Source: a virus | Lineage: Duplodnaviria; Heunggongvirae; Uroviricota; Caudoviricetes | Direction: 5' to 3' (one strand) | DNA length: 16,044 bases | IMG/VR virus record: IMGVR_UViG_2718217897_000010 | Location: 1 to 16,044 of that record | Shown here: piece after piece, positions 1-16,044 of the stretch | How the letters are laid out: each line of letters begins with the position of its first letter | How positions within the stretch are numbered: the first letter of the stretch is position 1 | Translations under genes and position numbers: made by a program | The notes under the pieces: generated by a model | Seen by the model: only the letters and a program-made list of their open reading frames with translations | Database searches by the model: none | What the model was told of the DNA's origin: nothing

Positions 1-642
1 TTATGTTTTTGCAATAGTTAAACCAGATCGTTTAATATACTCATCTAACGTGCCAGAGGTGTCATGTATTTTCGCAACATGATAATTGAGTAAGCTAATT
101 TCTTTAGTTTGTAATTTTGGTGGAGGAATATCCGCTCTACCGCCATCCACAGATACCAATAAAAACCTGTCTAGGAATGCTCCGTCGTAATAAAGCTCAT
201 ACCAATATCCAGTTGCTCTGGGATCTGGATAATTGTTAGCCCAATCTTCTATAAAATTTTCACATTGAATTCCTTCATCAATGAACTTGGCTCGAAAACG
301 AAGACGTGGGTCTTCTTTAAGGAATCGTTCGCTAGCCCATTCCCTTGAAATCCCATGCCAATCTTGAGATGGTTCAGTTTTGGGTATGAAATTTAAGATT
401 TCCTCATATGTCATATCTCTGACAGGTTTACGTTCTGGTAAAAAATATTCTGCTACCGATGGGCTGGCTAAGAACAATGAACTAAGCATTCCCAGAGCGA
501 ATGCGATAGGTTCTATATCAAATCCTGATATCCAAAAAAAAGCTGCTATCAAAGCGGCCCCGAAAAAAATCCCCCCCAATACTCTAAGGGGATGTTGATA
601 TTGTTTTATCCATAACCAGATTGGTGTTAACTTAATTTTCAT
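1..642 (-). CDS. hypothetical membrane protein (213 aa): two predicted N-terminal TM helices, then ~150-aa soluble domain
   Basis: Complete ORF with stop codon at 1-3 and ATG at 642. Hydrophobic stretches VLGGIFFGAALIAAFFWISGF and IAFALGMLSSLFLASPSV near the N-terminus. AT-rich coding sequence. No family recognised. Confidence 0.5.
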   Translation of the reverse strand: MKIKLTPIWLWIKQYQHPLRVLGGIFFGAALIAAFFWISGFDIEPIAFALGMLSSLFLASPSVAEYFLPERKPVRDMTYEEILNFIPKTEPSQDWHGISREWASERFLKEDPRLRFRAKFIDEGIQCENFIEDWANNYPDPRATGYWYELYYDGAFLDRFLLVSVDGGRADIPPPKLQTKEISLLNYHVAKIHDTSGTLDEYIKRSGLTIAKT

Positions 643-1153
643 CTGCCATTCCGATTTGTCTAACTTATTTAGAATTAAGAGGTTGAAATTAAGAATAGAT
701 AATCATACTCACTACGGGCTTTGAATTTTGATATTACAATTATTTCATTTTATTTTCAATTAATTATACGTTATTTATTGAACAAGTTTCCATGCCCTCA
801 GTTAACCAAAATGTCCGTTTCTAGCACACAGCAGCCCTATAGACAGTGGAGTAAAGTCATGGAGGATCGGTGGGAGGAGATGCAAATCCTCTCATACAAA
901 AAATACGTAAAATCTATAACAGCTGGAAATCATTCAATACTCGCACTATTGGAAGTTCACCAGCCAACCGCAGCACGTTCTTGCATACGACGTGCCTGCG
1001 GTTTCAACTCCCGCCAGCTCCACCAATCATGATTGGGTGGCGTAAGGATAATACCAACAAAAACAGCAAGTTATCAGTCCAAGCAGGACACCAACCAGAC
1101 GGTGAGGATACAAAAAAAGATACGCAAAGGAGCCGCGGTGCCCTAGTGACTTG

Positions 1154-1176
1154 AAAGCCCACAGATGTGGGCTTTT
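1154..1176 (+). terminator. putative rho-independent terminator (stem AAAGCCCAC / GTGGGCTTT, loop AGAT, followed by TTTTAT)
   Basis: Perfect 9-bp inverted repeat with GC core read directly from sequence; T-run on the plus strand. Not attached to any convincing upstream gene. Confidence 0.4.
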
Positions 1177-1368
1177 ATGGAATAAAGTACTTGAACCAAC
1201 AGCAAGAAATCAGTCTTGATGCTAAGTACTAGTGATGAAGCCACAACAACTGCTCTCATAAAAACGAAGACACTTATCGTGCCACCATCAAAATCTTTGT
1301 GAGTGTATCCATTTCTTTTTACTTGAACAGAGAAAACAATAATGCTGCTTATTTGCACAGTAAAATAA

Positions 1369-1388
1369 TACTGTATACAAACACAGTG
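1369..1388. promoter_or_regulatory. LexA (SOS) box-like operator TACTGTATACAAACACAGTG
   Basis: Matches the CTGT-N8-ACAG core and 16 of 20 positions of the E. coli LexA consensus TACTGTATATATATACAGTA. Overlaps plausible -35/-10 hexamers on both strands (plus strand TTGCAC-17-TACAAA). Confidence 0.5.
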
Positions 1389-1587
1389 TAGAGGAAGTTT
1401 TATGCATATTCCAACTAGCATGAATGTCTTTCTGTCATAAAATTAATGTCTGTTATAAGCAGTGAGCCCAACCGATGCATGCAGCACATAGCGAACCCAA
1501 ATTACAGCCTTTACAGCCACTATTGTTCACCATTAGACAGATGCGAACATTTTCCTGTATGAAGATATTTAGACTGCTTTTATTTGT

Positions 1588-2685
1588 CTAAAAATTCTCT
1601 CTCTTGTGCTGCATTTTACTCTTATTTTCAAGCATAAGAAACATTGCTGCATTTTGCTCCCAAGATATTTTAGATAAAAACATTTTTTTAGAAAATGATT
1701 GTTCCAATTCTCCCAAAAACGAATCAAGCCACCAATAATATTCCCATCCCTTAGTTGTTAATAAAGACTTGGCATTAAAATCCACTGTAACTACCAAACC
1801 TACTGAATAAATTGAAAATGAATTAAACTCTCTACCCAAATAAAGATTTCCAAATTTCATTGGTAGATTAGCCCCGAATCCCTCGAACACAGGGCGATAA
1901 TTAATCTTAAATCTTTTAGTAACAATACTTATACTAGAGTCGCTCTCTCTTGTGAGCGAACTACTTTTGGGAAGAACTATTTCAAAATGGTCAAAAATTG
2001 CGCCTCCATTGCCATATGCATATACAACTTTACCTATAGATGGTAAAGAACTATAATCCATAAATTGCTCACGTTCATCCATAGCTCTAGAAAAAGTATC
2101 AATAAATCTATTCCCCATAAGAACATCAGGAATACTTTTCCTATCTAGTTTAACCAAATAATCATCGGAAAAAGTTTCATCATCATTAAAATAGCTACTT
2201 AAATGAAGAGCAAGTTTTCTTAAAACATAATACTCAATCGCCTCAATAAATAGTGCATTTGCTTTCATTTTTTTGCTATTTATCCCCTTCCCTTTAAAAT
2301 CAAAAGCATAACCAATTGGCCCCTCAGTCCATGATTTATGAATAGCCTTATTTTCCGCGCATAATCCTTTTAGGTAACGGCTAACCTCTTCGGAAAAATC
2401 GTAGCCTTCAATTGATATCAACTCTTTTTTTTCATTGTCTAAACACACAACCCCCTCAAAATCATATTTCCCATTATTCATAGGATAGGCGTTACGCAGA
2501 AAGATTGTGGCACCTAAAATTATTAGTAGCGCACCAACAACAATCATTTTCAAAAATGACAAGTTAAAATAACCAACAACGCCTGATGACAGTATATTTA
2601 CGCCCAAGGCAATTAACACCGCAACAATGAACACTTCGAATATATTTGTTTTAACGGCTAGTAGATCTGCTATTTTTTTCTTCAT
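1588..2685 (-). CDS. hypothetical membrane-anchored protein (365 aa): two N-terminal TM helices plus ~300-aa soluble domain
   Basis: Long ORF in an AT-rich block. N-terminus MKKKIADLL followed by hydrophobic segments FIVAVLIALGVNILSSGVVGYF and MIVVGALLIILGATIFL. No recognisable catalytic motif. Confidence 0.6.
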   Translation of the reverse strand: MKKKIADLLAVKTNIFEVFIVAVLIALGVNILSSGVVGYFNLSFLKMIVVGALLIILGATIFLRNAYPMNNGKYDFEGVVCLDNEKKELISIEGYDFSEEVSRYLKGLCAENKAIHKSWTEGPIGYAFDFKGKGINSKKMKANALFIEAIEYYVLRKLALHLSSYFNDDETFSDDYLVKLDRKSIPDVLMGNRFIDTFSRAMDEREQFMDYSSLPSIGKVVYAYGNGGAIFDHFEIVLPKSSSLTRESDSSISIVTKRFKINYRPVFEGFGANLPMKFGNLYLGREFNSFSIYSVGLVVTVDFNAKSLLTTKGWEYYWWLDSFLGELEQSFSKKMFLSKISWEQNAAMFLMLENKSKMQHKRENF

Positions 2686-2739
2686 AGTGCACCCAATCCA
2701 ACTTATACTCTCATCATTAGCCTACGGCCAAACTCAAAT

Positions 2740-2757
2740 TTGCACTCTTATGTGCAA
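2740..2757. promoter_or_regulatory. inverted repeat TTGCAC-N6-GTGCAA in the upstream region of the 365-aa gene (possible operator)
   Basis: Palindromic hexamers read directly, 55-70 bp upstream of the ATG at 2685 (minus strand). Function is inferred only. Confidence 0.2.
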
Positions 2758-3085
2758 TTGGACCCTCAACACTACAACTTTTATATCTTTATTACAATGC
2801 ATTAAATATAGAGTAGTTAGCTAAGTGCAACGATAGGACAGAATTGTACCCGAAGCACAATATCTACAAACGGTTTAACATTAGTTGCAAGTGCGGACCA
2901 CTTTTTCTATCTGCCTATATTTTCAGGCTGCTGCTGGTCGGTAGTTTCTATGTATAGCCGCTTTCACCGTCAATGACGCATAAAGTCTATCTTTCCCTAC
3001 TTACTGATGAATCAGAACGCGACATTCCACTCATCCTCAGAATCCCTCAGAAGGTTCAATATAACGCCAAGCACCGAAGTTCCGC

Positions 3086-3424
3086 TTATGAGTGAACATG
3101 ATGAACAACTATATCTTGCCCTGTTCTATGGGGATACCAACCACAATAGTGGGACAAACCGCCATTAATTAACTCATGCTCTAAATCTTCGTCCACCAGC
3201 ACGACAAGATGCCGCATACTGCGCCCCAGTCGGTCCAGTTTCCAGACCACCAGCGTATCACCTGCCGATAATGTCCTGAGCAGTTTTTTCAGTCCAGGCC
3301 TTTCGGACTTTGTACCGCTTATCTTGTCTTCAAAAATCAGCTCGCATCCTGCACAGTTCAGCGCATTACGTTGTAGATCTGTGTTCTGGTCATTTGTTGA
3401 CACACGTACATAGCCAATAAGCAT
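3086..3424 (-). pseudogene. DNA invertase (serine recombinase, Hin/Gin/Pin family), 3'-truncated
   Basis: Translation from the ATG at 3424: MLIGYVRVSTNDQNTDLQRNAL...GDTLVVWKLDRLGRSM, the classic invertase N-terminus including the catalytic Ser in RVSTNDQ. The ORF stops after ~112 codons and the C-terminal HTH DNA-binding domain is missing in all frames. The track ORF start at 3460 adds 12 non-homologous residues. Confidence 0.75.
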
Positions 3425-3450
3425 GGTAGATCTCCCTGACAAAAGCAGGA

Positions 3451-3843
3451 ATGATGCCATTTGCTCGTTATTTCTGCATTTTCATAAACGTTGGTTTGGG
3501 AGAAGCGGCCAAATTGCCTGCGATTAGTGGCTCTTTATCATCATCTGGCTGGATAAAAATCCCTGTTATAGAGGGGAAGTCTTTTATTATCCAATGGGGA
3601 AGAATCGGACCTTCTGATAGTAAAACTGGTGTTGCAACAGGAAGTTATCCTATTGCTTTTCCAAATTCTGCATTTATGGCATTTATTGCTGAAAAAACCG
3701 CAGTATCCACAGGCCCAATAGGTATTAATTCCTGGGGAGTATCCGAACTAACAAAAACAGAATTAAAGGCCATTTGTGCTGCAAGGACTATATCAACTTC
3801 AGCCGCAACTGAAACAGGTGATTTTCTGGTACTGGGATATTGA
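3451..3843 (+). pseudogene. side tail fibre C-terminal (variable, receptor-binding) segment; lacks the 5' constant part
   Basis: Contains IIQWG and PIAFPN motifs typical of lambdoid/Mu-type tail-fibre C-termini. Begins at the crossover site. Its stop overlaps the start of the downstream tail-fibre assembly gene (ATGA). No upstream constant tail-fibre region is present on this strand. Confidence 0.6.
3479..3504. other. invertase crossover site-like 26-bp imperfect palindrome (hix/gix/pix-like)
   Basis: TTTTCATAAACG-TT-GGTTTGGGAGAA. The reverse complement TTCTCCCAAACCAACGTTTATGAAAA matches about 20 of 26 positions of hixL as I recall it (TTCTTGAAAACCAAGGTTTTTGATAA). It lies next to the invertase gene and inside the 5' end of the tail-fibre segment, as expected for such switches. 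Confidence 0.45.
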
Positions 3844-4313
3844 GCTTCCATAAGGATTATAAAATGTCGAGCATAATATACTACAGCTCTATAAATAATG
3901 CATTTTACCCTGAGCATTTGAAACAAGAATATATTAAATCTAATTCTTTTCCAGCAGATGCAAAACCCGTTAAATATTCTGTTTTCGAAGAATTTGCACT
4001 TAAACCAGCACCAGAAGGAAAATACAGGTGCGTTGGTGAAGATGGAATGCCATCATGGGCAGATATTCCACCACCAACACATGAGGAACAGATTGCCGCA
4101 GCCGAATTGAAAAAGCAGCAATTGATTAACCAGGTCAACGAATACATGAACAGTAAACAATGGCCCGGTAAAGCGGCTATTGGTCGTCTGAAAGGTGAGG
4201 AACTGGCGCAATATAATCTGTGGCTGGATTACCTGGACGCACTGGAAATGGTCGATACTTCCAGTGCTCCAGATATTGAATGGCCTACGCCTCCGGCAGT
4301 TCAGGCCAGATGA
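3840..4313 (+). CDS. tail fibre assembly protein (Tfa family)
   Basis: 157 aa. N-terminus YYSSINNAFYPEHLKQEY and C-terminus LWLDYLDALEMVDTSSAPDIEWP are typical of Tfa/gpU-type chaperones. Translationally coupled to the fibre segment upstream. Confidence 0.8.
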   Translation: MSFHKDYKMSSIIYYSSINNAFYPEHLKQEYIKSNSFPADAKPVKYSVFEEFALKPAPEGKYRCVGEDGMPSWADIPPPTHEEQIAAAELKKQQLINQVNEYMNSKQWPGKAAIGRLKGEELAQYNLWLDYLDALEMVDTSSAPDIEWPTPPAVQAR

Positions 4314-4722
4314 CATCTGGCGCGGTGCTGGTATCAGTTGCCGTCACCGCGTCAATGTAATCCAGCACAGCGTTAAGGCGGGTTGTTTCTGTCTGCGTCA
4401 GTTTACGTCCGGCCTGCAATTTCAGTTGAATCAGACTGATGGAAGCCATTGCTGCATCAATTAGTAACTGGCGCTGTGCTTCTGCCGCGTCTACTGCGGC
4501 ACTGTGTTGTGCCTCAGTGTCTGTCACCCATTTCTCACCATCCCATTTATCGTATGGCGTTAACGGTGAAAGCGTGACATAACCGTCTTTGATGGCACCG
4601 ATATAATCCACTGTAACAGCTGCGCCATTTTCGATTGAGTAAACAGTCTCATTGCGATGGTCTTCTTCATGGCTCCATCCCTTACCTGTAAATATTGGCA
4701 TGGGGTAAGATTTCCGGCTCAT
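4285..4722 (-). CDS. tail fibre assembly protein (Tfa family), second copy in opposite orientation
   Basis: 145 aa. C-terminus AVLDYIDAVTATDTSTAPDVIWPELPEA is the conserved Tfa motif. Converges on the plus-strand Tfa with a 29-bp 3' overlap, as in Mu G / e14 P invertible segments. Confidence 0.75.
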   Translation of the reverse strand: MSRKSYPMPIFTGKGWSHEEDHRNETVYSIENGAAVTVDYIGAIKDGYVTLSPLTPYDKWDGEKWVTDTEAQHSAAVDAAEAQRQLLIDAAMASISLIQLKLQAGRKLTQTETTRLNAVLDYIDAVTATDTSTAPDVIWPELPEA

Positions 4723-5222
4723 GATTCGTTAATTTTCAGAAACGGGTTAGTGGCTTTCTTCTGCCCCGCCAGGCCAATCAGACGCTGGCGGCTGCTGGGG
4801 TCGAGTCCGAGCATTGCCCCCGTGCTGCTCATCTCGGACTCCTGTTCTTTTTTGGCGGTCAGCTCCGGATTTTTGACCCTGCCGCCCATTGCACCGGTGA
4901 TGGTGTTGCCCTGTATGGCAATATTTTTCACGGCACGTCGCCAGAACTCATAGGCCACGCACCACCGCTCAAGTACCGCCAGGTCAGTCACGCACAGCAG
5001 ACCCTGACCGCAGAGTTCTTTGGTTGTCAGTTGCCACATGATCGTGGCGAGAGGGAGATCTTCTTCAGCGAACCACTCCGGTGGCTCAACACCTTTGATG
5101 GGCGTAAAAACAGGTTCATCTTTGTTCAGGGCTCGCTTGCCGGGGTTTCCGGCCAGCGCCTTGCGCGCCGTTGGCTTGGGGCGACGCCCGGAACGCCCCG
5201 CCGTTCCAGCCATATGCGGCAC
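4719..5222 (-). CDS. phage terminase small subunit (P27-family-like)
   Basis: 167 aa. N-terminus MAGTAGRSGRRPKPTARKALAGNPGKRALNKDEP is characteristic of P27-type TerS. Its stop overlaps the start of the Tfa gene (ATGA), so no large terminase or structural genes follow. Confidence 0.65.
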   Translation of the reverse strand: MPHMAGTAGRSGRRPKPTARKALAGNPGKRALNKDEPVFTPIKGVEPPEWFAEEDLPLATIMWQLTTKELCGQGLLCVTDLAVLERWCVAYEFWRRAVKNIAIQGNTITGAMGGRVKNPELTAKKEQESEMSSTGAMLGLDPSSRQRLIGLAGQKKATNPFLKINES

Positions 5223-5338
5223 TCCTGGTTAAATTTCATTTTTCGCGGGTATAAAAAAACGATGGGGCGGGCAGTCCGGAAGACGTCAGGCCGCAGGGAT
5301 TTGACCCGCCCCTCCCCTCAAGCAGTTGAGAATTATTA
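5223..5338. other. putative cos / packaging-initiation region between HNH and terS
   Basis: Intergenic, with GC-rich inverted repeat GGGGCGGG (5264-5271) ... CCCGCCCC (5305-5312). HNH-cos-terS is the usual order in HK97-like cos phages (from memory). Confidence 0.3.
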
Positions 5339-5689
5339 TCACTTCAACCGTTCACGGGCCGTCTTCGCCTTATGACACGGCCAGCACAGACTCTGCAGAT
5401 TACGGTCGGCATCAGTGCCGCCATGCGCTTTAGGAATGATGTGGTCAACGGTTTTCGCCTCGCGCACCACACCGGCACGCAAACACAACTGACACAGGCC
5501 TTTGTCACGCTTCAGCACACGCGCGCGGATAACGTCCCACTTCGAACCATAACCGCGCTGATGACGGGATTGTCCTGGCTTGTATTGCTTCCAGCCTTCG
5601 CCTTTGTGTTGCTTGCAATAACCTGACGGGTCTGTGGTTGTCGATCGGCAGCCGCGAACACGGCAGGCTTTTGGTGTTCGTGGTGGCAT
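5339..5689 (-). CDS. HNH endonuclease (phage packaging-associated)
   Basis: 116 aa. Cys pairs CRVRGC and CQLC, plus DHIIPKAHGG ... NLQSLCWPCH, make up an HNH/zinc-finger motif. Located immediately upstream of terS. Confidence 0.8.
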   Translation of the reverse strand: MPPRTPKACRVRGCRSTTTDPSGYCKQHKGEGWKQYKPGQSRHQRGYGSKWDVIRARVLKRDKGLCQLCLRAGVVREAKTVDHIIPKAHGGTDADRNLQSLCWPCHKAKTARERLK

Positions 5690-5764
5690 TGAAATATTCT
5701 CTCTGATACTGCTCGCACGATATGCATAAAAACCTCCAACAGGCGGTTTATGTGTAGACGTATC

Positions 5765-6676
5765 TCAGTACTTAAATAAGAATTTGCTATTACTTTGAAA
5801 TTGAGATGGTGTGGTTGCAATCGGACTAGATGTCGCAGCTATCTCTTCAAGTAACTCAGCTTTCCAGACATGCCCTAGTTGCAAAGATTCACTATGCGAC
5901 ACTTTGTATTCTGCAGCACTAACGACTTGTTCTAAGAAAAGATCACTGTTTAGCATTTGCATACTTGCATAAACGCCAAGGAAATGAATTTTCATTCCCA
6001 TATCCATGATCATATTCCCTTCTTTTGTAAGATAACCACTGTGCGTGACATAGAATGCCGGAGAGCCTGACATTCCAGGGAAAGCAGAAATATCGACAAC
6101 TATTAATTTCTTCCCATCGAAATCGATATCTGGCTCACTCGCTAAGCTTCCTGTTTTCCATATTGGAAGGTAGTGAGTCGTGTCATGATAACCATGAGGA
6201 TATCCAATCATTACAACAGGAGATGAGGGGTTTATCTGGACATTAGGCAGTGTCGTTGTTTTTGAGACTACTTTTACTCCTGTGTTTACAAACAACTCTT
6301 GAGGCAAAGGCATCAAGATAATGTCTGCCTCTTTATCTGTGGGGTGCTCCAACCACAGCGGTGAACCATCTTTAAACAGAGGCATCGTATGTTTGAATAG
6401 TTTTCCGGTTTTATCTCTCAGCTGAATATCAATACTATCGCCTATAAATGGCTTTACACCCCTTTCGGATGGGCTGATTCCAGTTATTACATGATAGTTA
6501 GTTGCAAGGAAAATGAAACCATTGCTATGTTGATAAAAGAACCCAGTACCTAACGACTTTGACTCTCCATTAGACCTCAAAATTACTAAAGTAGTTACCA
6601 GAGATAGCGGCTGTACGTTTTGCATAAAATTCATCCAACATGAACTTCGATATAGGTTGTAAAAGCATACAATCAT
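5765..6676 (-). CDS. trypsin-like (chymotrypsin-fold) serine protease, cytoplasmic; start codon uncertain
   Basis: Candidate catalytic triad in the canonical order: His in ATNYHVITG, Asp in EADIILMPL, Ser in GMSGSPAF (GDSGGP-like). No signal peptide. AT-rich. Alternative starts at internal Met15 or Met18 (MNFMQNV). Confidence 0.6.
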   Translation of the reverse strand: MIVCFYNLYRSSCWMNFMQNVQPLSLVTTLVILRSNGESKSLGTGFFYQHSNGFIFLATNYHVITGISPSERGVKPFIGDSIDIQLRDKTGKLFKHTMPLFKDGSPLWLEHPTDKEADIILMPLPQELFVNTGVKVVSKTTTLPNVQINPSSPVVMIGYPHGYHDTTHYLPIWKTGSLASEPDIDFDGKKLIVVDISAFPGMSGSPAFYVTHSGYLTKEGNMIMDMGMKIHFLGVYASMQMLNSDLFLEQVVSAAEYKVSHSESLQLGHVWKAELLEEIAATSSPIATTPSQFQSNSKFLFKY

Positions 6677-6742
6677 TCCAGAAAATTCTTAACCAACTAT
6701 TTCCAATATATGAATCGCCAATTCCGATCTAGCTATATAACC

Positions 6743-7015
6743 TCACTTTTCAGCAGAGTTTTTCTCCGAAAGCAGGTGCTCACTCTTTCTAATGTCTAAC
6801 TTATCCCTATTACAAGACGCCAGCGCCGACAACAGGCTTACGTTCAAATCCAGGCTCCCACTCCATGTCAGCGGGTCGGGGATAGCTGGTTGCGGAGTTT
6901 CAGCGGTCAGATTCGCTAGTAGTGGTACCGCCGAAACTGGTACGTAAACTGTCCGCGTACCGGCGCAGCCGTTCAGCTGCACGAGCAGGAACAGGACGGG
7001 CAGCGCAATCATCAT
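6743..7015 (-). CDS. Rz1-like o-spanin (outer-membrane lipoprotein), overlapping the 3' end of Rz in a different frame
   Basis: MMIALPVLFLLVQLNGC followed by a proline-rich mature region (VPVSAVP, TPQPAIPDP). Starts inside Rz and runs past its stop. Lipobox LNGC is non-ideal and the signal peptide lacks a basic residue; the start may instead be the in-frame ATG at 7081. Confidence 0.4.
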   Translation of the reverse strand: MMIALPVLFLLVQLNGCAGTRTVYVPVSAVPLLANLTAETPQPAIPDPLTWSGSLDLNVSLLSALASCNRDKLDIRKSEHLLSEKNSAEK

Positions 7016-7292
7016 TCGCAAAAGCCATTTTGATATCAGCCTGGGTTCTCTGTGACTCCAGTGCGATCTGCTGTTTTGCATGCTGGTTAGCCTCCAGTAC
7101 TGTATTGACGATTTGTAGTGATTGCAGGACGTTATTAGTAATGGCAGTTGCCGATTTGGCATTTTGTACAGCCTCATCAGCACGTTTCTTTTCGTGCTGA
7201 TATTTGCTGTAGTAGTGGTTGGTTGACCAGATGAAAGAACAGACGACAGTTAAAAGGAAAGCAGCGATAATCAGCTTATAGCTCAACTTCAT
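6900..7292 (-). CDS. Rz-like i-spanin
   Basis: 130 aa with one N-terminal TM helix (LIIAAFLLTVVCSFIW) and a charged, probably coiled-coil periplasmic domain. Immediately downstream of the endolysin and overlapping it. Confidence 0.55.
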   Translation of the reverse strand: MKLSYKLIIAAFLLTVVCSFIWSTNHYYSKYQHEKKRADEAVQNAKSATAITNNVLQSLQIVNTVLEANQHAKQQIALESQRTQADIKMAFANDDCAARPVPARAAERLRRYADSLRTSFGGTTTSESDR

Positions 7293-7752
7293 TTACCACC
7301 CCACCAGCCTCTTTAAACCTGGCAATCAGGTCACCGATTTTATGTTCATACTGACCATAACCAGCGCCCGGCAGTGAAGCCCAGATATTGCTGCAACGGT
7401 CGATTGCCTGACGGATATCACCGCGATCAATCATCGGTAAAGCGCCACGCTCTTTAATCTGCTGTAATGCCACGGAGTCCTGGCTTCTGGGAGAGAAGTC
7501 TTTCAGCCCTAGCTGCTTGCGGTAGGCATCCCACCAACGGGAAAGAAGCTGGTAACGTCCGGCTGCTGTTGATTTGAGTTTCGGGTTTAGCGTGACAAGT
7601 TTGCGAGGATGATCGGAGTAATCAGTAAACAGTTCACCACCGACAATGACATCATAACCGTGGTTACGTGTCGGTTGTCGCCCGTTATCCGTTCCTTCTG
7701 ACCATGCAACCATATCCAAGAAAGCTTTACGCTGGGAATTTAGTGCCTGCAT
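7276..7752 (-). CDS. R: endolysin, lambda R-like lytic transglycosylase
   Basis: 158 aa. NSQRKAFLDMVAWSEGTDNGRQPTRNHGYDVIVGGELFTDYSDHPRKLVTLNPKLKS ... is near-identical along its length to lambda R as I recall it, including the catalytic Glu in WSEGT. Confidence 0.9.
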   Translation of the reverse strand: MQALNSQRKAFLDMVAWSEGTDNGRQPTRNHGYDVIVGGELFTDYSDHPRKLVTLNPKLKSTAAGRYQLLSRWWDAYRKQLGLKDFSPRSQDSVALQQIKERGALPMIDRGDIRQAIDRCSNIWASLPGAGYGQYEHKIGDLIARFKEAGGVVNEVEL

Positions 7753-7755
7753 AAA

Positions 7756-8082
7756 TTACTCCTTCGAGCTACCAAATTTGTTACCGATTACTCGCATTGC
7801 AGCCCCACGAATTGCATCGACACCAATCAGCCCAACACCGCCACCAATGGCAACAGAAAGAGATTTAGGCCATCCGACATACTCAAGAGCGGATGCAAAA
7901 GTCAGCGTCAGAGCACCACAGAGCAAAATCTCGAGCGTTTTTCGTTTCCAGCCACCACCACCGCCAAAATAGGCAATGCGCAAGCCAGCCATAACGATCG
8001 ACATAATCACTGCGCCCAGCGGTGTGTCTCCACGCCACCAGCTCTGGAACAACTCCAGCCAGGTATTTGGGTTATGAGGCAT
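7756..8082 (-). CDS. holin (class I, three TM segments, lambda S-like size)
   Basis: 108 aa with three hydrophobic segments and a charged C-terminus (NKFGSSKE). Sits directly upstream of the endolysin with 3-bp spacing. Confidence 0.7.
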   Translation of the reverse strand: MPHNPNTWLELFQSWWRGDTPLGAVIMSIVMAGLRIAYFGGGGGWKRKTLEILLCGALTLTFASALEYVGWPKSLSVAIGGGVGLIGVDAIRGAAMRVIGNKFGSSKE

Positions 8083-8234
8083 TTGTAGTTATCTCTCACC
8101 TCGCTGATACAGCAGGTGCAAATTGAGGGAACATCATGTACAGCAAATTAGAAGCGGAAACGTCAAAGAAGCCGAACCAATGGATAACTGCGGAATAGAC
8201 CAGGACCAACGAATCCCCAGCCCCAGAAACGACA

Positions 8235-8256
8235 AAACCCGCTCGACGGCGGGTTT
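8235..8256 (-). terminator. putative intrinsic terminator on the minus strand upstream of the holin (tR'-like position)
   Basis: Hairpin AAACCCGC-TCGACG-GCGGGTTT. On the minus strand the GC stem is followed by TTTTGTCGTTTCT. Confidence 0.35.
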
Positions 8257-8367
8257 AAGCTGTGTGGCGAAGTAACCACTCTTAACACGATACAATAATT
8301 TTTGCGTACGCGTTAGCGTTTTTGTAAGATTAACAAATAAATCGAAAAATCATAATCGGATGATTTC

Positions 8368-9390
8368 ATGGCAAAATTAAATGCTAGCGAAAGACTCGTT
8401 ACTCATCATAGTCTGACCATTGACACAAAGTTTAGAACCAAGGCAACACAAGAGGTAAAAGCCCAGTGTATATGTCCTGTTCCGGAAATGTACATGCTTG
8501 CCCCATTGATTGTTAAACAAAAGGGACTCGTTCATTCATATGATTCTGGGAATATTGTAGTTACTCTCCAAGATGTACAACTTTATCCTTTACTTCCAGA
8601 TAACTCACCCACGCATATTGTCCTTCTTATTAATAGTGTTGATAAAAATGGAAGTACTACCGTTGTAAAAAATATAAATACTAATGAACGCGTTGAAATC
8701 CAACCAAAATATGAACAAGGTGAAGGCTATGAAGTTTCTACCTATGTTGTCATATCATTAAATGGAAATAAAAGAACCTATGATATGATTTGTACATCTA
8801 CCCCAGGTGTATCTACGGCCCGGTTAAATAGTTTTTTAGACAAAATTCTCTTTGAAGTGGCGAAAGACAATGAAGACTTATTTACCGCAAAACATCCAAC
8901 TAACGTTATTTCTGCAACATCAAAAAAAGAAGTAAAAATACGATACAAACCAATATTTGAATTTACAGGAATGTTAGACAAGGAGCTTTTTAATAAAATA
9001 AGCCAAAAAGGATTATCAGATGTCATATTAGTCAAGGATCAATTCGGAACAATTAATGCTCCTGATGTTAACTCACCTTACATTCCGACTGAAAGTACAT
9101 TAAAATTACTTCCAAATCATGGTGACAATGTTATTGGATGGATTAAAAATGTAGCATCTCATTTCAATAAAAAAATGAATGGTGGTTATGATAAATTAAA
9201 GGTTAAATTCCAAGATCCTGAAACAAATAAACCAAGGCAGGTTGATTTCAAAACCTCAAACATCAATCTTAATAATTTAGAAAAAACATTTATTAAGAAA
9301 AGCATTATCGATAACTTTAATTCGCGCCTGAAGGATTCATATGTTAAAATTGAGCTAGAGTTTGTTGTGAAAATGATAGATTTGATGTGA
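8368..9390 (+). CDS. hypothetical soluble protein (340 aa), first gene of an AT-rich two-gene cargo operon
   Basis: ORF with ATG at 8368. Strongly AT-rich, Asn/Lys/Ser/Thr-rich, no TM segment, no recognisable NTPase, nuclease or NTase motif. 7-bp gap to the downstream gene, which has its own SD (GTGAGG). Confidence 0.6.
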   Translation: MAKLNASERLVTHHSLTIDTKFRTKATQEVKAQCICPVPEMYMLAPLIVKQKGLVHSYDSGNIVVTLQDVQLYPLLPDNSPTHIVLLINSVDKNGSTTVVKNINTNERVEIQPKYEQGEGYEVSTYVVISLNGNKRTYDMICTSTPGVSTARLNSFLDKILFEVAKDNEDLFTAKHPTNVISATSKKEVKIRYKPIFEFTGMLDKELFNKISQKGLSDVILVKDQFGTINAPDVNSPYIPTESTLKLLPNHGDNVIGWIKNVASHFNKKMNGGYDKLKVKFQDPETNKPRQVDFKTSNINLNNLEKTFIKKSIIDNFNSRLKDSYVKIELEFVVKMIDLM

Positions 9391-9397
9391 GGTTATT

Positions 9398-9982
9398 ATG
9401 CCAATACTTTCAGTTTTCTCTCATCTAGGCAAGCCGTTTGGATATCTTTTTATTAAAGGTATTAGCGGCAAAGCTGCATATGATTGGGTAGCGCCAATTC
9501 TACTTACTTCTATCACAGCAGTACTTTTCATTCTATTAAAAATCCCTGTCAAAGATTTATTTGATGACAATGGTTTCATTAAATCAATCGTTTCATTTAT
9601 CTCTAACCTACCAGGGTTTTATATTGCCGCTCTGGCCGCCATAGCAACTTTCAATAGAGCTGAGATTGATTTACCATTGATTAGCAATGAAAGAAATGCC
9701 TCTATTGAAATAAAAGTAACAAAAGAAAATGGAAAAGTAGTAAATTCAGAGGAGGTTCTGACCAGACGATTATTTCTTTGCATGCTATTCTCTTTTTTAA
9801 CAGCATTAAGCATTGTTATAATAATACTTAATGCTATATTTTCACCATTAATCAATGTCTATCAAAACAGTTTTGTTTTAATGGTTTATACTGTTGTATT
9901 TACTTTCCTCGTTTGGCAACTCTTAGTATCAACTTTCTTTGGATTATATTATCTCGGAAACAGAATTCATATGAATTATTAA
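9398..9982 (+). CDS. hypothetical integral membrane protein (194 aa, four predicted TM helices)
   Basis: Hydrophobic segments at about residues 30-49, 64-85, 125-148 and 159-186, with a ~40-residue charged loop between TM2 and TM3. Coupled to the upstream 340-aa gene. Confidence 0.6.
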   Translation: MPILSVFSHLGKPFGYLFIKGISGKAAYDWVAPILLTSITAVLFILLKIPVKDLFDDNGFIKSIVSFISNLPGFYIAALAAIATFNRAEIDLPLISNERNASIEIKVTKENGKVVNSEEVLTRRLFLCMLFSFLTALSIVIIILNAIFSPLINVYQNSFVLMVYTVVFTFLVWQLLVSTFFGLYYLGNRIHMNY

Positions 9983-10002
9983 GCCCTACAGGGGCTTAAT
10001 AA
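9976..10002. repeat. 11-bp perfect inverted repeat TTATTAAGCCC-TACAG-GGGCTTAATAA spanning the stop codons of two convergent genes
   Basis: Read directly. The left arm contains the TAA stop of the 194-aa gene (9980-9982) and the spacer/right arm contains the TAG stop of the Q-like gene (9986-9988). Confidence 0.6.
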
Positions 10003-10378
10003 TCAACAAAATACCTTCAATCACTCCTATTGCTGCTTGAAGTTGTTTTCTGATTGACCCGTCAGAGCATTTCCGTTTCTTTGCTATTGAACGGAGTGAA
10101 ATACCGATAACAAAGTGAGCAATGATCAGTTCATATTCTTCTGGCTTATATTTCCGCATTCGCGCAACACAGCTGTCAATCATGATTCCTTCATCATCAT
10201 CGCATTGTTGGCGTGTTTTCTTTCCATGAGGTAGTAAACCTTTAAACCCTGCAGCAACAGGCTGCCAGTCCACACCACTGTTAACCGCGGGAAAATTTCC
10301 GAAGAAGACACCACCGAAACGCCGATGTATGTCAATCGCGGTGGTCGCCTGACTATTCTGCAGGAAGACCAGGGACAA
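9986..10378 (-). CDS. Q-like late antiterminator (phage 21/QuuD-type); non-ATG (TTG) start, possibly defective
   Basis: 130 aa containing AAGFKGL, CDDDEGIMIDSCVARM and CSDGSIRKQLQAAIGVIEGIL, which resemble phage-21-type Q proteins as I recall them. The ORF begins with TTG directly after an in-frame TAA; the first internal ATG is at codon ~66. Confidence 0.5.
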   Translation of the reverse strand: MSLVFLQNSQATTAIDIHRRFGGVFFGNFPAVNSGVDWQPVAAGFKGLLPHGKKTRQQCDDDEGIMIDSCVARMRKYKPEEYELIIAHFVIGISLRSIAKKRKCSDGSIRKQLQAAIGVIEGILLIIKPL

Positions 10379-13546: not shown

Positions 13547-14586
13547 AGGCTGAAGCATGGCGGGTCAGCAAACTTGGTGAAATACCTGATATAACGTTCG
13601 AGGAAGCGTGTGTCAGGTGGCTTGAAGAGAAAGCACATAAAAAATCACTGGACGATGACAAAAGCCGGATCGGATTCTGGCTTCAACATTTCGCAGGAAT
13701 GCAACTAAGAGACATTACTGAATCAAAAATTTATTCAGCAATGCAGAAAATGACGAACCGGCGTCATGAGGAAAACTGGAAACTCAGGGCAGAAGCATGC
13801 AGAAAAAAAGGGAAACCTGTTCCAGAATACACGCCAAAACCAGCGTCCGTTGCAACGAAGGCTACGCATCTTTCATTTATAAAGGCCCTACTAAGAGCCG
13901 CAGAGCGTGAATGGAAAATGCTGGATAAGGCACCAATTATTAAAGTGCCTCAACCAAAGAATAAACGGATCCGCTGGCTGGAGCCCCATGAAGCACAAAG
14001 GCTGATTGATGAATGTCCGGAGCCATTAAAGTCTGTTGTTGAATTTGCACTGGCAACAGGCTTAAGACGCTCGAACATCATCAACCTTGAATGGCAACAA
14101 ATAGACATGCAGCGCCGGGTGGCATGGATAAACCCGGAAGAGAGTAAATCAAACCGCGCAATTGGCGTTGCGCTGAATGATACTGCATGTCGCGTATTGA
14201 AAAAACAAATCGGGAATCATCACCGTTGGGTATTTGTGTACAAGGAAAGCTGTACCAAACCAGACGGAACGAAAGCGCCAACGGTCAGGAAGATGCGGTA
14301 TGACGCAAACACAGCCTGGAAAGCGGCGCTGAGACGGGCTGGTATTGATGATTTCAGATTTCACGACTTGAGACACACCTGGGCAAGCTGGCTGGTTCAA
14401 GCCGGAGTCCCGTTGTCAGTGTTACAGGAAATGGGAGGCTGGGAGTCTATCGAAATGGTTCGTCGATATGCTCACCTTGCACCTAATCACCTTACCGAAC
14501 ACGCACGGCAAATAGACTCGATCCTGAACCCATCGGTCCCAAATTTGTCCCAGTCAAAAAATAAGGAAGGTACTAATGATGTGTAA
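13423..14586 (+). CDS. int: tyrosine site-specific integrase (P22 Int-like, 387 aa)
   Basis: N-terminus [49 protein letters not shown]-terminal catalytic region [39 protein letters not shown] carries the conserved H-x-x-R and Tyr. Ends 14 bp from the tRNA 3' end. Confidence 0.9.
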
Positions 14587-14600
14587 CTTATTGATTTAAA

Positions 14601-14676
14601 TGGTGCCGATAATAGGAGTCGAACCTACGACCTTCGCATTACGAATGCGCTGCTCTACCAACTGAGCTATATCGGC
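14601..14676 (-). tRNA. thrW: tRNA-Thr (anticodon CGU)
   Basis: The reverse complement folds as a canonical cloverleaf: acceptor stem GCCGATA/TATCGGC, anticodon loop TTCGTAA, T-arm GGTTCGACTCC, 3' CCA encoded. Confidence 0.95.
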
Positions 14677-14790: not shown

Positions 14791-16044
14791 TTACGCACGA
14801 ATGGTGTAATCACCAATGCCGATCCACTTGTAAGTGGTCAGTGCTTCCAGCCCCATTGGGCCACGTGCGTGCAGTTTTTGTGTGCTTACCGCCACTTCCG
14901 CACCCAGTCCAAACTGGCCGCCGTCGGTAAAACGCGTAGAGGCGTTAACGTAAACAGCGGACGAATCCACTTCGTTAACAAAACGCTGGGCGTTGCGCAT
15001 ATCGCGGGTCAGGATCGCATCGGAGTGTTGCGTGCCGTGTTCACGAATATGGGCGATGGCATCGTCAAGATCGCTGACGATTTTGACGTTCAAATCTAAT
15101 GACAGAAACTCATCGTCATACTCTTCGGCTTTAACCGCCACCACCTTCGCGGGGCCTGCCTGCAACTGTGTCAGCGCAGCTGCATCTGCGTGTAATGTCA
15201 CGCCGCTTTCCGCCATTTGTTTGCTTAATACGGGCAGGAAGCTATCGGCGATGTTTTTATTCACCAGCAACGTTTCTACCGTATTACATGTGCTCGGACG
15301 CTGAGTTTTGGCGTTGACGATCACTTTTAATGCTTCAGCGATCTCTGCACTTTCATCAACGTAAATATGGCATACGCCTATACCACCTGTGATCACCGGG
15401 ATCGTCGACTGTTCGCGGCACAGTTTATGCAAACCAGCGCCACCACGCGGGATCAGCATGTCGATGTATTTATCCATACGCAGCATTTCACTGACCAGCG
15501 CACGGTCAGGATTATCAATCGCCTGCACGGCACCCGCCGGTAAGCCGCAGGATTTCAGGGCGTCCTGAATCACCGCCACCGTTGCAGCGTTAGTGCGACA
15601 CGTTTCTTTGCCACCGCGCAGGATCACCGCATTACCGGTTTTCAGGCACAGCGAAGCGACATCAACCGTCACGTTCGGGCGCGCTTCATAAATCACGCCA
15701 ATAACCCCCAGCGGTACGCGACGACGCTCAAGACGCAGGCCGCTGTCCAGTACGCCGCCATCGATTACCTGCCCCACCGGATCGGCGAGGTTGCACACCT
15801 GACGTACATCGTCGGCAATGCCTTTCAGCCGTGCGGGCGTCAGTGCCAGACGGTCAAGCATCGCTTCGCTAAGGCCATTGGCTCGCGCGTCAGCAACATC
15901 CTGGGCGTTAGCGTTGAGGATGATTTCGCTTTGTGCTTCCAGTTCATCGGCGATTTTTTCCAGCACGCGATTTTTTTCGCGGCTGGAGAGTTGCGCTAAT
16001 TTATACGAGGCTTGCTTCGCGGCAATGCCCATTTGTTCCAGCAT
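14791..16044 (-). CDS. proA: gamma-glutamyl phosphate reductase
   Basis: 417-aa [41 protein letters not shown] ... matches E. coli ProA along its full length (from memory). The ATG is at the window edge (16042-16044). Confidence 0.95.

Follow-up and report, generated by a model that had tools for sequence, protein, structure and literature searches.

The closest described counterpart of the locus analysed here is the invertible P segment of prophage e14 in Escherichia coli K-12 (pinE, stfP/tfaP, tfaE/stfE), for which inversion by PinE has been documented (PMC4272514; PMC12529663). In intact members of this family, the constant part of the tail fibre gene is followed by a first crossover site (pixL), a variable fibre segment (Sv) and a tail fibre assembly gene (tfa) in one direction, and then by a second assembly gene (tfa'), a silent variable segment (S'v), a second crossover site (pixR) and the invertase gene pin. 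Both K-12 e14 and the prophage of E. coli TW10828 show this full layout. In TW10828 pinE is complete, and the two sites stand in inverted orientation at a distance of 1,838 bp, one of them inside the fibre gene. In an intact phage, Pin dimers at the two inverted 26-bp pix sites flip about 1.8 kb with the help of an enhancer that lies at the 5' end of pin and is bound by Fis. The inversion joins one or the other variable fibre end to the constant fibre part, and each of these ends has an assembly chaperone of its own. The pathway requires two sites, four invertase subunits including their DNA-binding domains and the Fis-bound enhancer (PMC3798978).

The stretch of DNA that we analysed (16,044 nt, hereafter the window) retains only a partial tfa, followed by tfa' and S'v, then pixR and codons 1-77 of pin. 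A first-pass annotation had read this region as the frozen remnant of an invertible tail-fibre switch, and both the layout of intact relatives and the requirement for two sites and a full invertase support that reading. We consider it very probable that the region represents a non-functional remnant of an e14-type invertible P segment, the Pin/pix host-range switch, in a heavily deleted e14-family myovirus prophage, and no observation runs counter to this anatomy. The whole structure belongs to the already-described e14 P-segment family and is ordinary, already-known biology and ordinary prophage decay.

The prophage and its host locus

The window holds a defective e14-family prophage of E. 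coli inserted at a tRNA-Thr gene (thrW; 14601-14676), which adjoins proA on one side, with the pao genes on the other. Gene content, synteny and nucleotide identity all place it among the e14-family prophages, which have a P27-type terminase, an HK97 head and a Mu-like tail. In strains TW10828 and SC407 the identical proA-thrW...pao locus is occupied by full-length versions with e14-type ymfR, ymfQ and ymfL, and e14-named genes are present in the annotation of both prophages. SC407 is 99.4% identical to window positions 1-3513, and TW10828 is 99.86% identical to positions 4701-10283, the match starting exactly at 4701. A further prophage, located at prfC in GPEC1035, is 98.6% identical to positions 905-3513. 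The presence of the left part at prfC in GPEC1035 raised inter-prophage recombination with a second prophage as the source of that part, which we rejected because the complete prophage of SC407, at the same thrW-pao locus, has the same left end.

Among the cargo of the remnant are two defence candidates, PDC-M53 and PDC-S45. A cargo gene of 365 aa (1588-2685) is linked to the DNA at 2690-3188 that has replaced the 3' two-thirds of pin.

The truncated invertase and the silent fibre cassette

The invertase gene, pin' (3086-3424, minus strand), encodes 112 aa with a match to the resolvase N-terminal domain. Its residues 1-77 are identical to K-12 PinE, including YVRVS and DRLGRS, and are followed by 35 unrelated codons up to the stop. 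It keeps the catalytic Ser9 together with the D64/R65/R68 region, giving the N-terminal resolvase catalytic domain with a nucleophilic serine that is found in Hin/Gin/Cin/Pin invertases. The Pfam Resolvase match (E 3.5e-26) covers profile positions 2-88 of 145 only, alignment with solved Gin structures is confined to residues 1-82, and tblastn with full PinE against the window and its 20-kb source locus recovered residues 1-79 only and none of the C-terminus. Missing are residues 78-184, which would have completed the catalytic domain and supplied the oligomerisation helix E and the helix-turn-helix DNA-binding domain; invertases of this family have a complete catalytic domain, helix E and a C-terminal helix-turn-helix. 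The first-pass annotation was thus right that the catalytic N-terminus survives and the DNA-binding domain is gone, but the loss is larger than it described, reaching into the catalytic domain and through helix E. We regard pin' as a probable pseudogene of the invertase family and not a working member of it, and the truncated Pin is predicted to be inactive.

Nucleotide homology to pin genes begins at about position 3189 of the window, both in roughly 2,700 E. coli genomes and in all phage matches. The pin fragment is matched in about half of complete E. coli genomes, at up to five places per genome. The non-pin DNA at 2690-3188 is far rarer: among 5,426 complete E. coli genomes exactly 11 have it, every time abutting truncated pinE. 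It is present in SC407 and GPEC1035, both of which have complete tail modules, and the truncation occurs even where this prophage, at this locus, is in other respects complete. Replacement of pin beyond codon 77 by cargo DNA is the first of two lesions in the switch and the older event, separate from the large deletion described below and inherited in common with otherwise complete prophages.

Next to pin' lies the silent variable fibre segment S'v (3451-3843, plus strand), with a Pfam Gp53-like_C domain at residues 45-130. This is the fibre C-terminal segment that had been placed at a palindrome beside the invertase gene, and its frame does read through that site (3479-3504). The segment has two parts, a short pin-proximal leader and the gp53-like C-terminal domain. 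The leader, MMPFARYFCIFINVGLGE, encodes the pix site and is conserved in e14 StfE, TW10828, GPEC1035 and SC407; the segment is 37% identical to K-12 StfP in a multiple alignment. An intact tail fibre assembly gene, its cognate chaperone, follows at 3840/3864-4313 on the plus strand (Caudo_TAP, E 1.9e-35; 149 aa from 3864), with 51-65% identity to TfaP-position proteins of e14-family prophages. The silent cassette is probably not made into fibre. Both of its genes nevertheless remain intact open reading frames, which fits recent decay and equally fits retention by selection.

Retention by selection is the basis of the rival reading that survives best, though we consider it unlikely: that the remnant was kept as useful, the frame at 3451-3843 and the chaperone at 3864-4313 serving as a locked-ON counterpart of K-12 StfE2. 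This chimeric e14 fibre fragment reportedly keeps T2 and other phages from adsorbing (Kirigo et al. 2025; PMC12529663). The architecture agrees, since in the frame at 3451-3843, as in StfE2-type proteins, the pin-proximal leader is joined at pix with a gp53-like C-terminal domain, which spans residues 45-130 in the window and 47-125 in StfE2 (PMC12529663). By BLASTP, S'v is 45% identical to in-silico K-12 StfE2 over 117 residues (E 9e-22), but for a receptor-binding-type domain specificity cannot be carried over from identity at this level, and StfE2 activity itself came from plasmid over-production (PMC12529663). A promoter/terminator scan of positions 2700-5300 found two promoter-like sites, fewer than in shuffles (mean 4.1) and neither upstream of the S'v start, which counts against a locked-ON gene while being uninformative on expression. 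The independent remnants e14, GF31 and O157 CDC#03-98 lost morphogenesis genes yet kept the segment, and the present remnant carries the candidate cargo PDC-M53 and PDC-S45; PADLOC, however, returned no match for the fibre segment or the tfa protein, nor for the 365-aa cargo protein. The cassette is intact and 98-100% identical in 10 other complete E. coli genomes, but a recent deletion alone predicts intact frames, and the flanks are 99.4-99.9% identical to complete prophages. We find it improbable that the half-switch would be a selected, permanently locked StfE2-like module that shields the host by occupying or masking phage receptors, its recurrent survival (e14, GF31, O157 and here) reflecting domestication, and favour a decaying, non-functional remnant.

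The lone crossover site and the large deletion

The single surviving crossover site of this remnant is the pin-proximal pix, or pixR (3479-3504; 26 bp, TTTTCATAAACGTTGGTTTGGGAGAA), which the first-pass annotation had described as a hix/gix-like imperfect palindrome beside an invertase gene. It is built of two 12-bp imperfect inverted half-sites, TTCTCCCAAACC and TTTTCATAAACG, which agree at 8 of 12 positions, with a 2-bp AA/TT core between them. The site is identical at 26/26 positions to that adjoining pinE in MG1655 e14, TW10828 and GPEC1035, and it matches Mu gixL/gixR (the annotated G-segment boundaries) at 17/26 and P1 cixL at 19/26 (hand count). Of the published 16-nt e14 repeat TTGGTTTGGGAGAAGG (PMC12529663), it contains 15 nt. 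None of 200 shuffles contained a match at ≤3 mismatches. The alignments to Mu gix, P1 cix and e14 pin therefore relate the element to known invertase sites, as had been proposed. Its position is likewise that of a crossover site, inside the fibre frame at the constant/variable junction and beside the invertase gene: it encodes FINVGLGE, and the pin start codon is 55 bp off.

DNA equivalent to the recombinational enhancer is retained as well. The P1 Cin enhancer is annotated at nt 19-90 of cin, and nt 19-90 of the invertase gene here (3335-3406, minus strand) are nearly identical to K-12 pinE, within a 5' region of pin' that aligns without gaps to cin, gin and pinE. This DNA may still be functional. 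A scan of the pin 5' region with a degenerate Fis consensus gave one match at a conserved position and others that were not conserved; we treated this as weak evidence and dropped calling the enhancer from it, the matches being too weak.

No second pix site was detected at ≤8 mismatches in the window and none in the 20-kb locus, the next-best candidate in the window having 9/26 mismatches and lying inside proA. Searches of the window and the 20-kb source locus by tblastn (queries: fibre constant part, PinE, TerL, YmfQ and Mu S) recovered no constant fibre part, TerL body or YmfQ, the pin fragment and the silent fibre segment being the only matches. With StfP, only residues 96-197 matched, on the silent segment, and the TW10828 fibre and Mu S gave no constant part. 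These empty searches and site scans bear out the earlier statement that the constant part, the second variable segment and the second site are missing. A functional switch has two inverted crossover sites and, upstream of the distal one, the constant N-terminal part of the fibre; the remnant has neither. With one site, a truncated Pin and a pathway that needs more than either, the switch therefore cannot operate in cis.

It is very unlikely that the lone pix is still an active partner, recombined by an invertase supplied in trans from another prophage with a distant pix-like site to produce large inversions. Identity to the functional e14 site at every position and the retained enhancer-equivalent DNA are compatible with this reading, as are the action of PinQ in trans on e14 (PMC12529663) and the commonness of Pin-family genes, given the frequency of the pin fragment among complete E. 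coli genomes. The second site is, however, absent from the window and the 20-kb locus, and the pao-to-proA synteny matches that of SC407 and TW10828, with no sign of rearrangement here. These negatives cover 16-20 kb of the genome, and a pix-like site or an active Pin-family invertase may lie elsewhere in the chromosome.

The remaining part of the remnant records the large deletion. Two convergent tail-fibre assembly genes with a 29-bp overlap had been described, and we detected both Caudo_TAP frames and the overlap (4285-4313), which is annotated also in K-12 e14, TW10828, GPEC1035, GF31 and SC407 and is therefore a family trait. The minus-strand frame at 4285-4722 is not the whole assembly gene that it had been taken for. 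It is instead a terL'-'tfa chimera, an in-frame fusion of the first 22 nt of terL (4701-4722, minus strand; MSRKSYP) with codons ~60-197 of a tfaE-type gene (4285-4700, minus strand), leaving the C-terminal ~138 codons and deleting the N-terminal ~59. The tfa part was established by protein alignment with GPEC1035, GF31, TW10828 and K-12 TfaE together with DNA alignments, and the start of TW10828 TerL, MSRKSYPNVNAAN, supports a terL origin for 4701-4722. The terL ATG overlaps the stop of terS (ATGA), the P27-family small terminase subunit gene (4719-5222, minus strand; Pfam Terminase_4), which forms the right-hand border of the deletion and whose annotation agrees with TW10828, SC407 and GF31; through this overlap the chimera would be coupled to terS in translation.

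At the junction (~4700/4701), terL codons 1-7 give way to tfa. Nine nucleotides there, ATGCCAATA, differ at three positions from every tfa relative examined, all of which carry GTGGCAGTA by BLAST of the flank, and the exact breakpoint lies somewhere in 4692-4701. A search for the parental tfa by exact-match scan of genome contigs with the junction-adjacent 28-mer gave no match. Comparison with homologous prophages, which the first-pass annotation had suggested, was made with TW10828, K-12 e14 and SC407 and allowed the losses to be mapped: in SC407 coordinates the deleted interval is 22007-39312 (L010), about 17.3 kb and 22 genes. Every head and tail gene went with it, as did the constant fibre part, one variable segment and the second crossover site. 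Formation of this deletion by Pin acting at pix sites was rejected because the junction falls in terL and tfa, at no site.

The chimeric protein is found on five contigs, two independent assemblies of which were read: the same junction occurs in an NCBI assembly (3 SNPs from the window over 14.7 kb) and in a Logan read-set assembly (100% over 6.1 kb). There is next to no chance that the junction is an assembly artefact joining two prophages. The likeness of the GPEC1035 prfC prophage to 905-3513 (98.6%) means that similar sequences exist that could mislead an assembler, but the identical junction protein recurs in these separate assemblies, the expected pao genes and att repeat flank the locus, and the left end of SC407 at this locus is the same. 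The terL-tfa junction is spanned by no complete genome. The ~17.3-kb deletion is lineage-specific, private where the pin truncation is shared. As the second lesion, running from terL codon 8 to about codon 60 of the expressed-side tfa, it removed the distal pix site and the expressed variable segment along with the constant fibre part, and the two independent lesions together would have frozen the switch.

Comparison with described switches

We attach little significance to this locus beyond its correct annotation. It offers a clean, fully mapped decay of a host-range switch in a cryptic prophage through two separate lesions, one shared and one private, and it shows that an apparent tail fibre assembly gene beside terS is a terminase-tfa chimera. 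Wider interest comes only through the recent claim that e14 P-segment products defend against phages, a claim that a locked natural variant could test.

The K-12 e14 P segment shares with the window the ymfR/ymfQ/ymfL family, the pix site (26/26), Pin residues 1-77, the leader peptide read through the site and convergent tfa genes with a 29-bp overlap, and e14 is itself a deletion-ridden remnant. In e14, unlike the window, pinE is full-length, both sites and the constant part are present, and inversion still occurs (PMC4272514, PMC12529663). The window has neither the constant part nor the distal site, and it also lacks one variable segment, 59 tfaE codons and pin codons 78-184. The variable cassette also differs from that of e14 (37% identity to K-12 StfP, 45% to in-silico StfE2).

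The G segment of Mu (gin/gix, S/U/U'/S') and the C segment of P1 (cin/cix) resemble the window in their logic and gene order, in the serine invertase beside the segment, in their 26-bp sites (17/26 for gix, 19/26 for cixL) and in the enhancer within the 5' end of the invertase gene; the N-terminus of Mu Gin is 63% identical to pin'. They belong to other phage families, and their fibres and chaperones differ in sequence, identity to Mu U/U' being 24-26%. Mu U and U' lack the overlap of the convergent pair in the window, and P1 cin, unlike pin', reads towards the segment and overlaps cixL. Both switches are functional, unlike that of the window.

The ends of the Qin and Rac prophages in K-12 have gene orders that we take to be pinQ-tfaQ-stfQ-nohQ and stfR-tfaR-pinR. 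They resemble the window in that a Pin-family gene and tail-fibre/tfa fragments survive beside a terminase-small-subunit-like gene, with no local inversion seen. Unlike the window, Qin and Rac presumably keep full-length, active invertases. One study reports inversions in e14 only (PMC12529663).

A single surviving crossover site

The ORF listing and Pfam scans located all of the elements seen by the first-pass annotation, namely convergent tail fibre assembly genes, a fibre segment, a 26-bp site, and an invertase gene. The invertase ORF (listed at 3086–3460, minus strand) matched only the N-terminal part of the Resolvase domain; its start codon is actually the ATG at 3424, which makes it 112 aa long. 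Next comes a 130-aa ORF carrying a Gp53-like_C tail fibre C-terminal domain (3451–3843, plus), followed by two Caudo_TAP assembly ORFs (3864–4313, plus, and 4285–4722, minus) that converge with a 29-bp overlap; directly beyond them lie a P27-family small terminase (4719–5222, minus) and then, in order, an HNH endonuclease, a trypsin-like peptidase, and lysis genes, with proA and tRNA-Thr at the right end of the window. The crossover site, an imperfect palindrome (TTTTCATAAACGTTGGTTTGGGAGAA) whose two 12-bp half-sites flank an AA core, lies at 3479–3504 within the fibre ORF, 55 bp from the invertase start, and none of 200 shuffles produced a match with three or fewer mismatches. Its suspected kinship to invertase sites was borne out by alignment: identity was 26/26 to the pin-proximal site of MG1655 e14, TW10828, and GPEC1035, 19/26 to P1 cixL, and 17/26 to Mu gixL/gixR, taken from the annotated ends of the G segment. 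The distal site of relatives (TTCTCCCAAACCAAGGTTTTCGAGAG) was absent from the window, where the best second candidate had nine mismatches and fell inside proA.

Full-length versions of the same prophage occupy the same locus in two complete E. coli genomes, TW10828 (99.86% identity over window 4701–10283) and SC407 (99.4% over 1–3513), whose annotated P27-type terminase, HK97-type head, Mu-like contractile tail, ymfR, ymfQ, and ymfL place them, by gene content, in the e14 family; the K-12 cryptic prophage e14, too, is a member that has suffered deletion. The intact switch of TW10828 reads ymfQ, tail fibre gene (constant plus variable part), tfaE, convergent tfa, gp53-like segment, and pinE (184 aa), with two inverted repeats 1,838 bp apart, one within the fibre gene and the other separating the gp53-like segment from pinE. 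This layout is shared by K-12 e14, whose segment inverts in culture (PMC4272514), flipped by PinE and also by PinQ in trans (PMC12529663). One complete E. coli assembly includes a "replicon" of 1,878 bp (NZ_CP148330.1) made up of nothing but a P segment (two tfa genes, gp53-like segment, and fibre fragment); it probably arose during assembly from a population in which both segment orientations were mixed.

Two separate lesions

The first-pass annotation held that the invertase keeps its catalytic N-terminus and lacks its DNA-binding domain, which stands, but the loss is larger: the active-site serine and DRLGR motif remain, while the catalytic domain's end and helix E are gone along with the helix-turn-helix domain. 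Residues 1–77 match K-12 PinE at every position and Mu Gin at 63% identity, unrelated sequence runs from there to the stop, solved Gin structures align to residues 1–82 only, and tblastn found no trace of PinE residues 80–184 in the window or its 20-kb source locus. Because the invertasome needs four subunits that bind by way of their DNA-binding domains and become remodelled as a tetramer (PMC3798978), the Pin fragment is presumably inactive. Nucleotide homology to pin genes starts at ~3189 in ~2,700 E. coli genomes and all phage hits, and exactly 11 of 5,426 complete genomes carry the 499 bp at 2690–3188, in every case next to truncated pinE, which PGAP already labels a pseudogene in the 11. 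Two of these, SC407 and GPEC1035, have kept both crossover sites and their tail modules intact, so the pin truncation is an older, inherited lesion linked to gain of a 365-aa cargo gene; the GPEC1035 prophage sits at prfC, unlike the thrW–pao element.

The cargo gene itself (1588–2685, minus) had no Pfam or PADLOC match; like the 499 bp downstream, it was present in exactly the 11 genomes, always joined to pinE truncated at codon ~78, and at least two chromosomal loci (thrW–pao and prfC) carry the two together. Other cargo matched PADLOC candidate defence systems: adjacent ORFs at 8368–9390 and 9398–9982 (both plus), between holin and Q antiterminator, matched PDC-M53A (E 2e-32) and PDC-M53B (E 3e-54), a pair annotated as hypothetical in TW10828, and the trypsin-like (S1) peptidase (5765–6676, minus), between HNH endonuclease and lysis genes, matched the single-gene PDC-S45 (E 6e-42). 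A 213-aa ORF without a Pfam domain at the prophage end (1–642, minus) gave only a weak match, to PDC-S50 (E 8e-4).

The two assembly genes do converge as first described, but 4285–4722 is a chimera rather than a whole tfa: codons 1–7 (MSRKSYP) belong to the large terminase gene terL, whose ATG overlaps the terS stop, and the rest aligns to residues ~60–197 of TfaE-type proteins at 92–93% identity. Homology to TW10828 begins exactly at 4701, and the stretch homologous to tfaE-type genes (GPEC1035, GF31, and O157) stops at 4700. The 9 nt at 4692–4700 (minus strand) read ATGCCAATA in the window and GTGGCAGTA in every tfa relative examined; because three positions differ, the breakpoint can be placed only within 4692–4701, and these bases at the junction may be mutated DNA or filler. 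Comparison with the intact prophages of TW10828 and SC407 mapped the lost parts, and the constant fibre part and second crossover site that had been reported missing fall within ~17.3 kb deleted relative to SC407 (22007–39312 of its locus, L010). This interval holds terL, ymfR, portal, protease, capsid, connector, sheath, tube, tape measure, baseplate genes, ymfQ, the entire fibre gene including the distal site, and tfa codons 1 to ~59. We rejected Pin as the maker of this deletion because the junction lies away from any pix site. A second deletion of ~7.6 kb at window 10282/10283 (TW10828 locus L003, 17583–25194) spans the Q-antiterminator N-terminus, RusA, KilA-N, and replication and immunity genes, to yfdP, leaving a chimeric Q-like ORF (9986–10378, minus).

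The chimeric terL–tfa ORF is present on five public contigs, including an E. coli-like NCBI assembly with 3 SNPs relative to the window over 14.7 kb and an independently assembled read set identical over 6.1 kb. In the NCBI contig the element is bounded by pao genes and by the thrW 3' end, repeated over 64 bp, so it is a prophage remnant of ~15.9 kb, as against ~41 kb in SC407; the whole arrangement was found in none of the complete E. coli genomes. The direct repeats marking the prophage ends (97% identical) lie at window 14583–14646 and at 15956–16019 of the source locus (L005), the left end falling ~1.3 kb outside the window, past a 252-aa ORF.

Rival readings of the surviving cassette

In architecture the fibre ORF at 3451–3843 matches StfE2 exactly, with a pin-proximal leader joined at pix to a gp53-like domain, and it is 45% identical to in-silico StfE2, a product of e14 inversion that reportedly keeps T2 and other phages from adsorbing (PMC12529663). 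The ORF and its chaperone gene are both intact, and ten other genomes carry the cassette at 98–100% identity, so a StfE2-like defence module locked ON would be allowed by our analysis. We consider this very unlikely and not supported, however, as a promoter scan gave no evidence for it, the cassette proteins had no PADLOC match, and recent deletion alone predicts intact ORFs. That an invertase acting in trans pairs the lone pix site with one elsewhere in the genome is more improbable still (16–20 kb of sequence was examined).

A probable frozen remnant of a known family

The reading we favour is thus the one first proposed, a frozen remnant of a switch, now with three refinements: one tfa is chimeric, the lesions are two and separate, and the switch is that of e14. 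With a single site and a truncated invertase the segment cannot invert locally, and with the constant part gone the silent fibre end could not be joined to a shaft. DNA equivalent in position to the annotated P1 Cin enhancer (gene nt 19–90) is kept at 3335–3406, nearly identical to K-12 pinE, and a Fis consensus scan of the pin 5' region gave a weak signal. Analogous decay was seen in independent remnants in GF31 (L001, 3835–7149), O157 CDC#03-98 (L011, 1754–4803), and K-12 e14 (L008), where terminase or replication gene fragments are joined directly to tail fibre genes and the P segment is kept together with a pin gene or pseudogene. This element has no second site, no constant fibre part, and no full-length invertase, and so falls short of a working switch; the crossover site, N-terminal invertase domain, and family synteny it retains indicate that it formerly belonged to the Gin/Cin/Pin tail fibre inversion systems, specifically as the e14 P segment, and that a well-known system has here undergone ordinary prophage decay.
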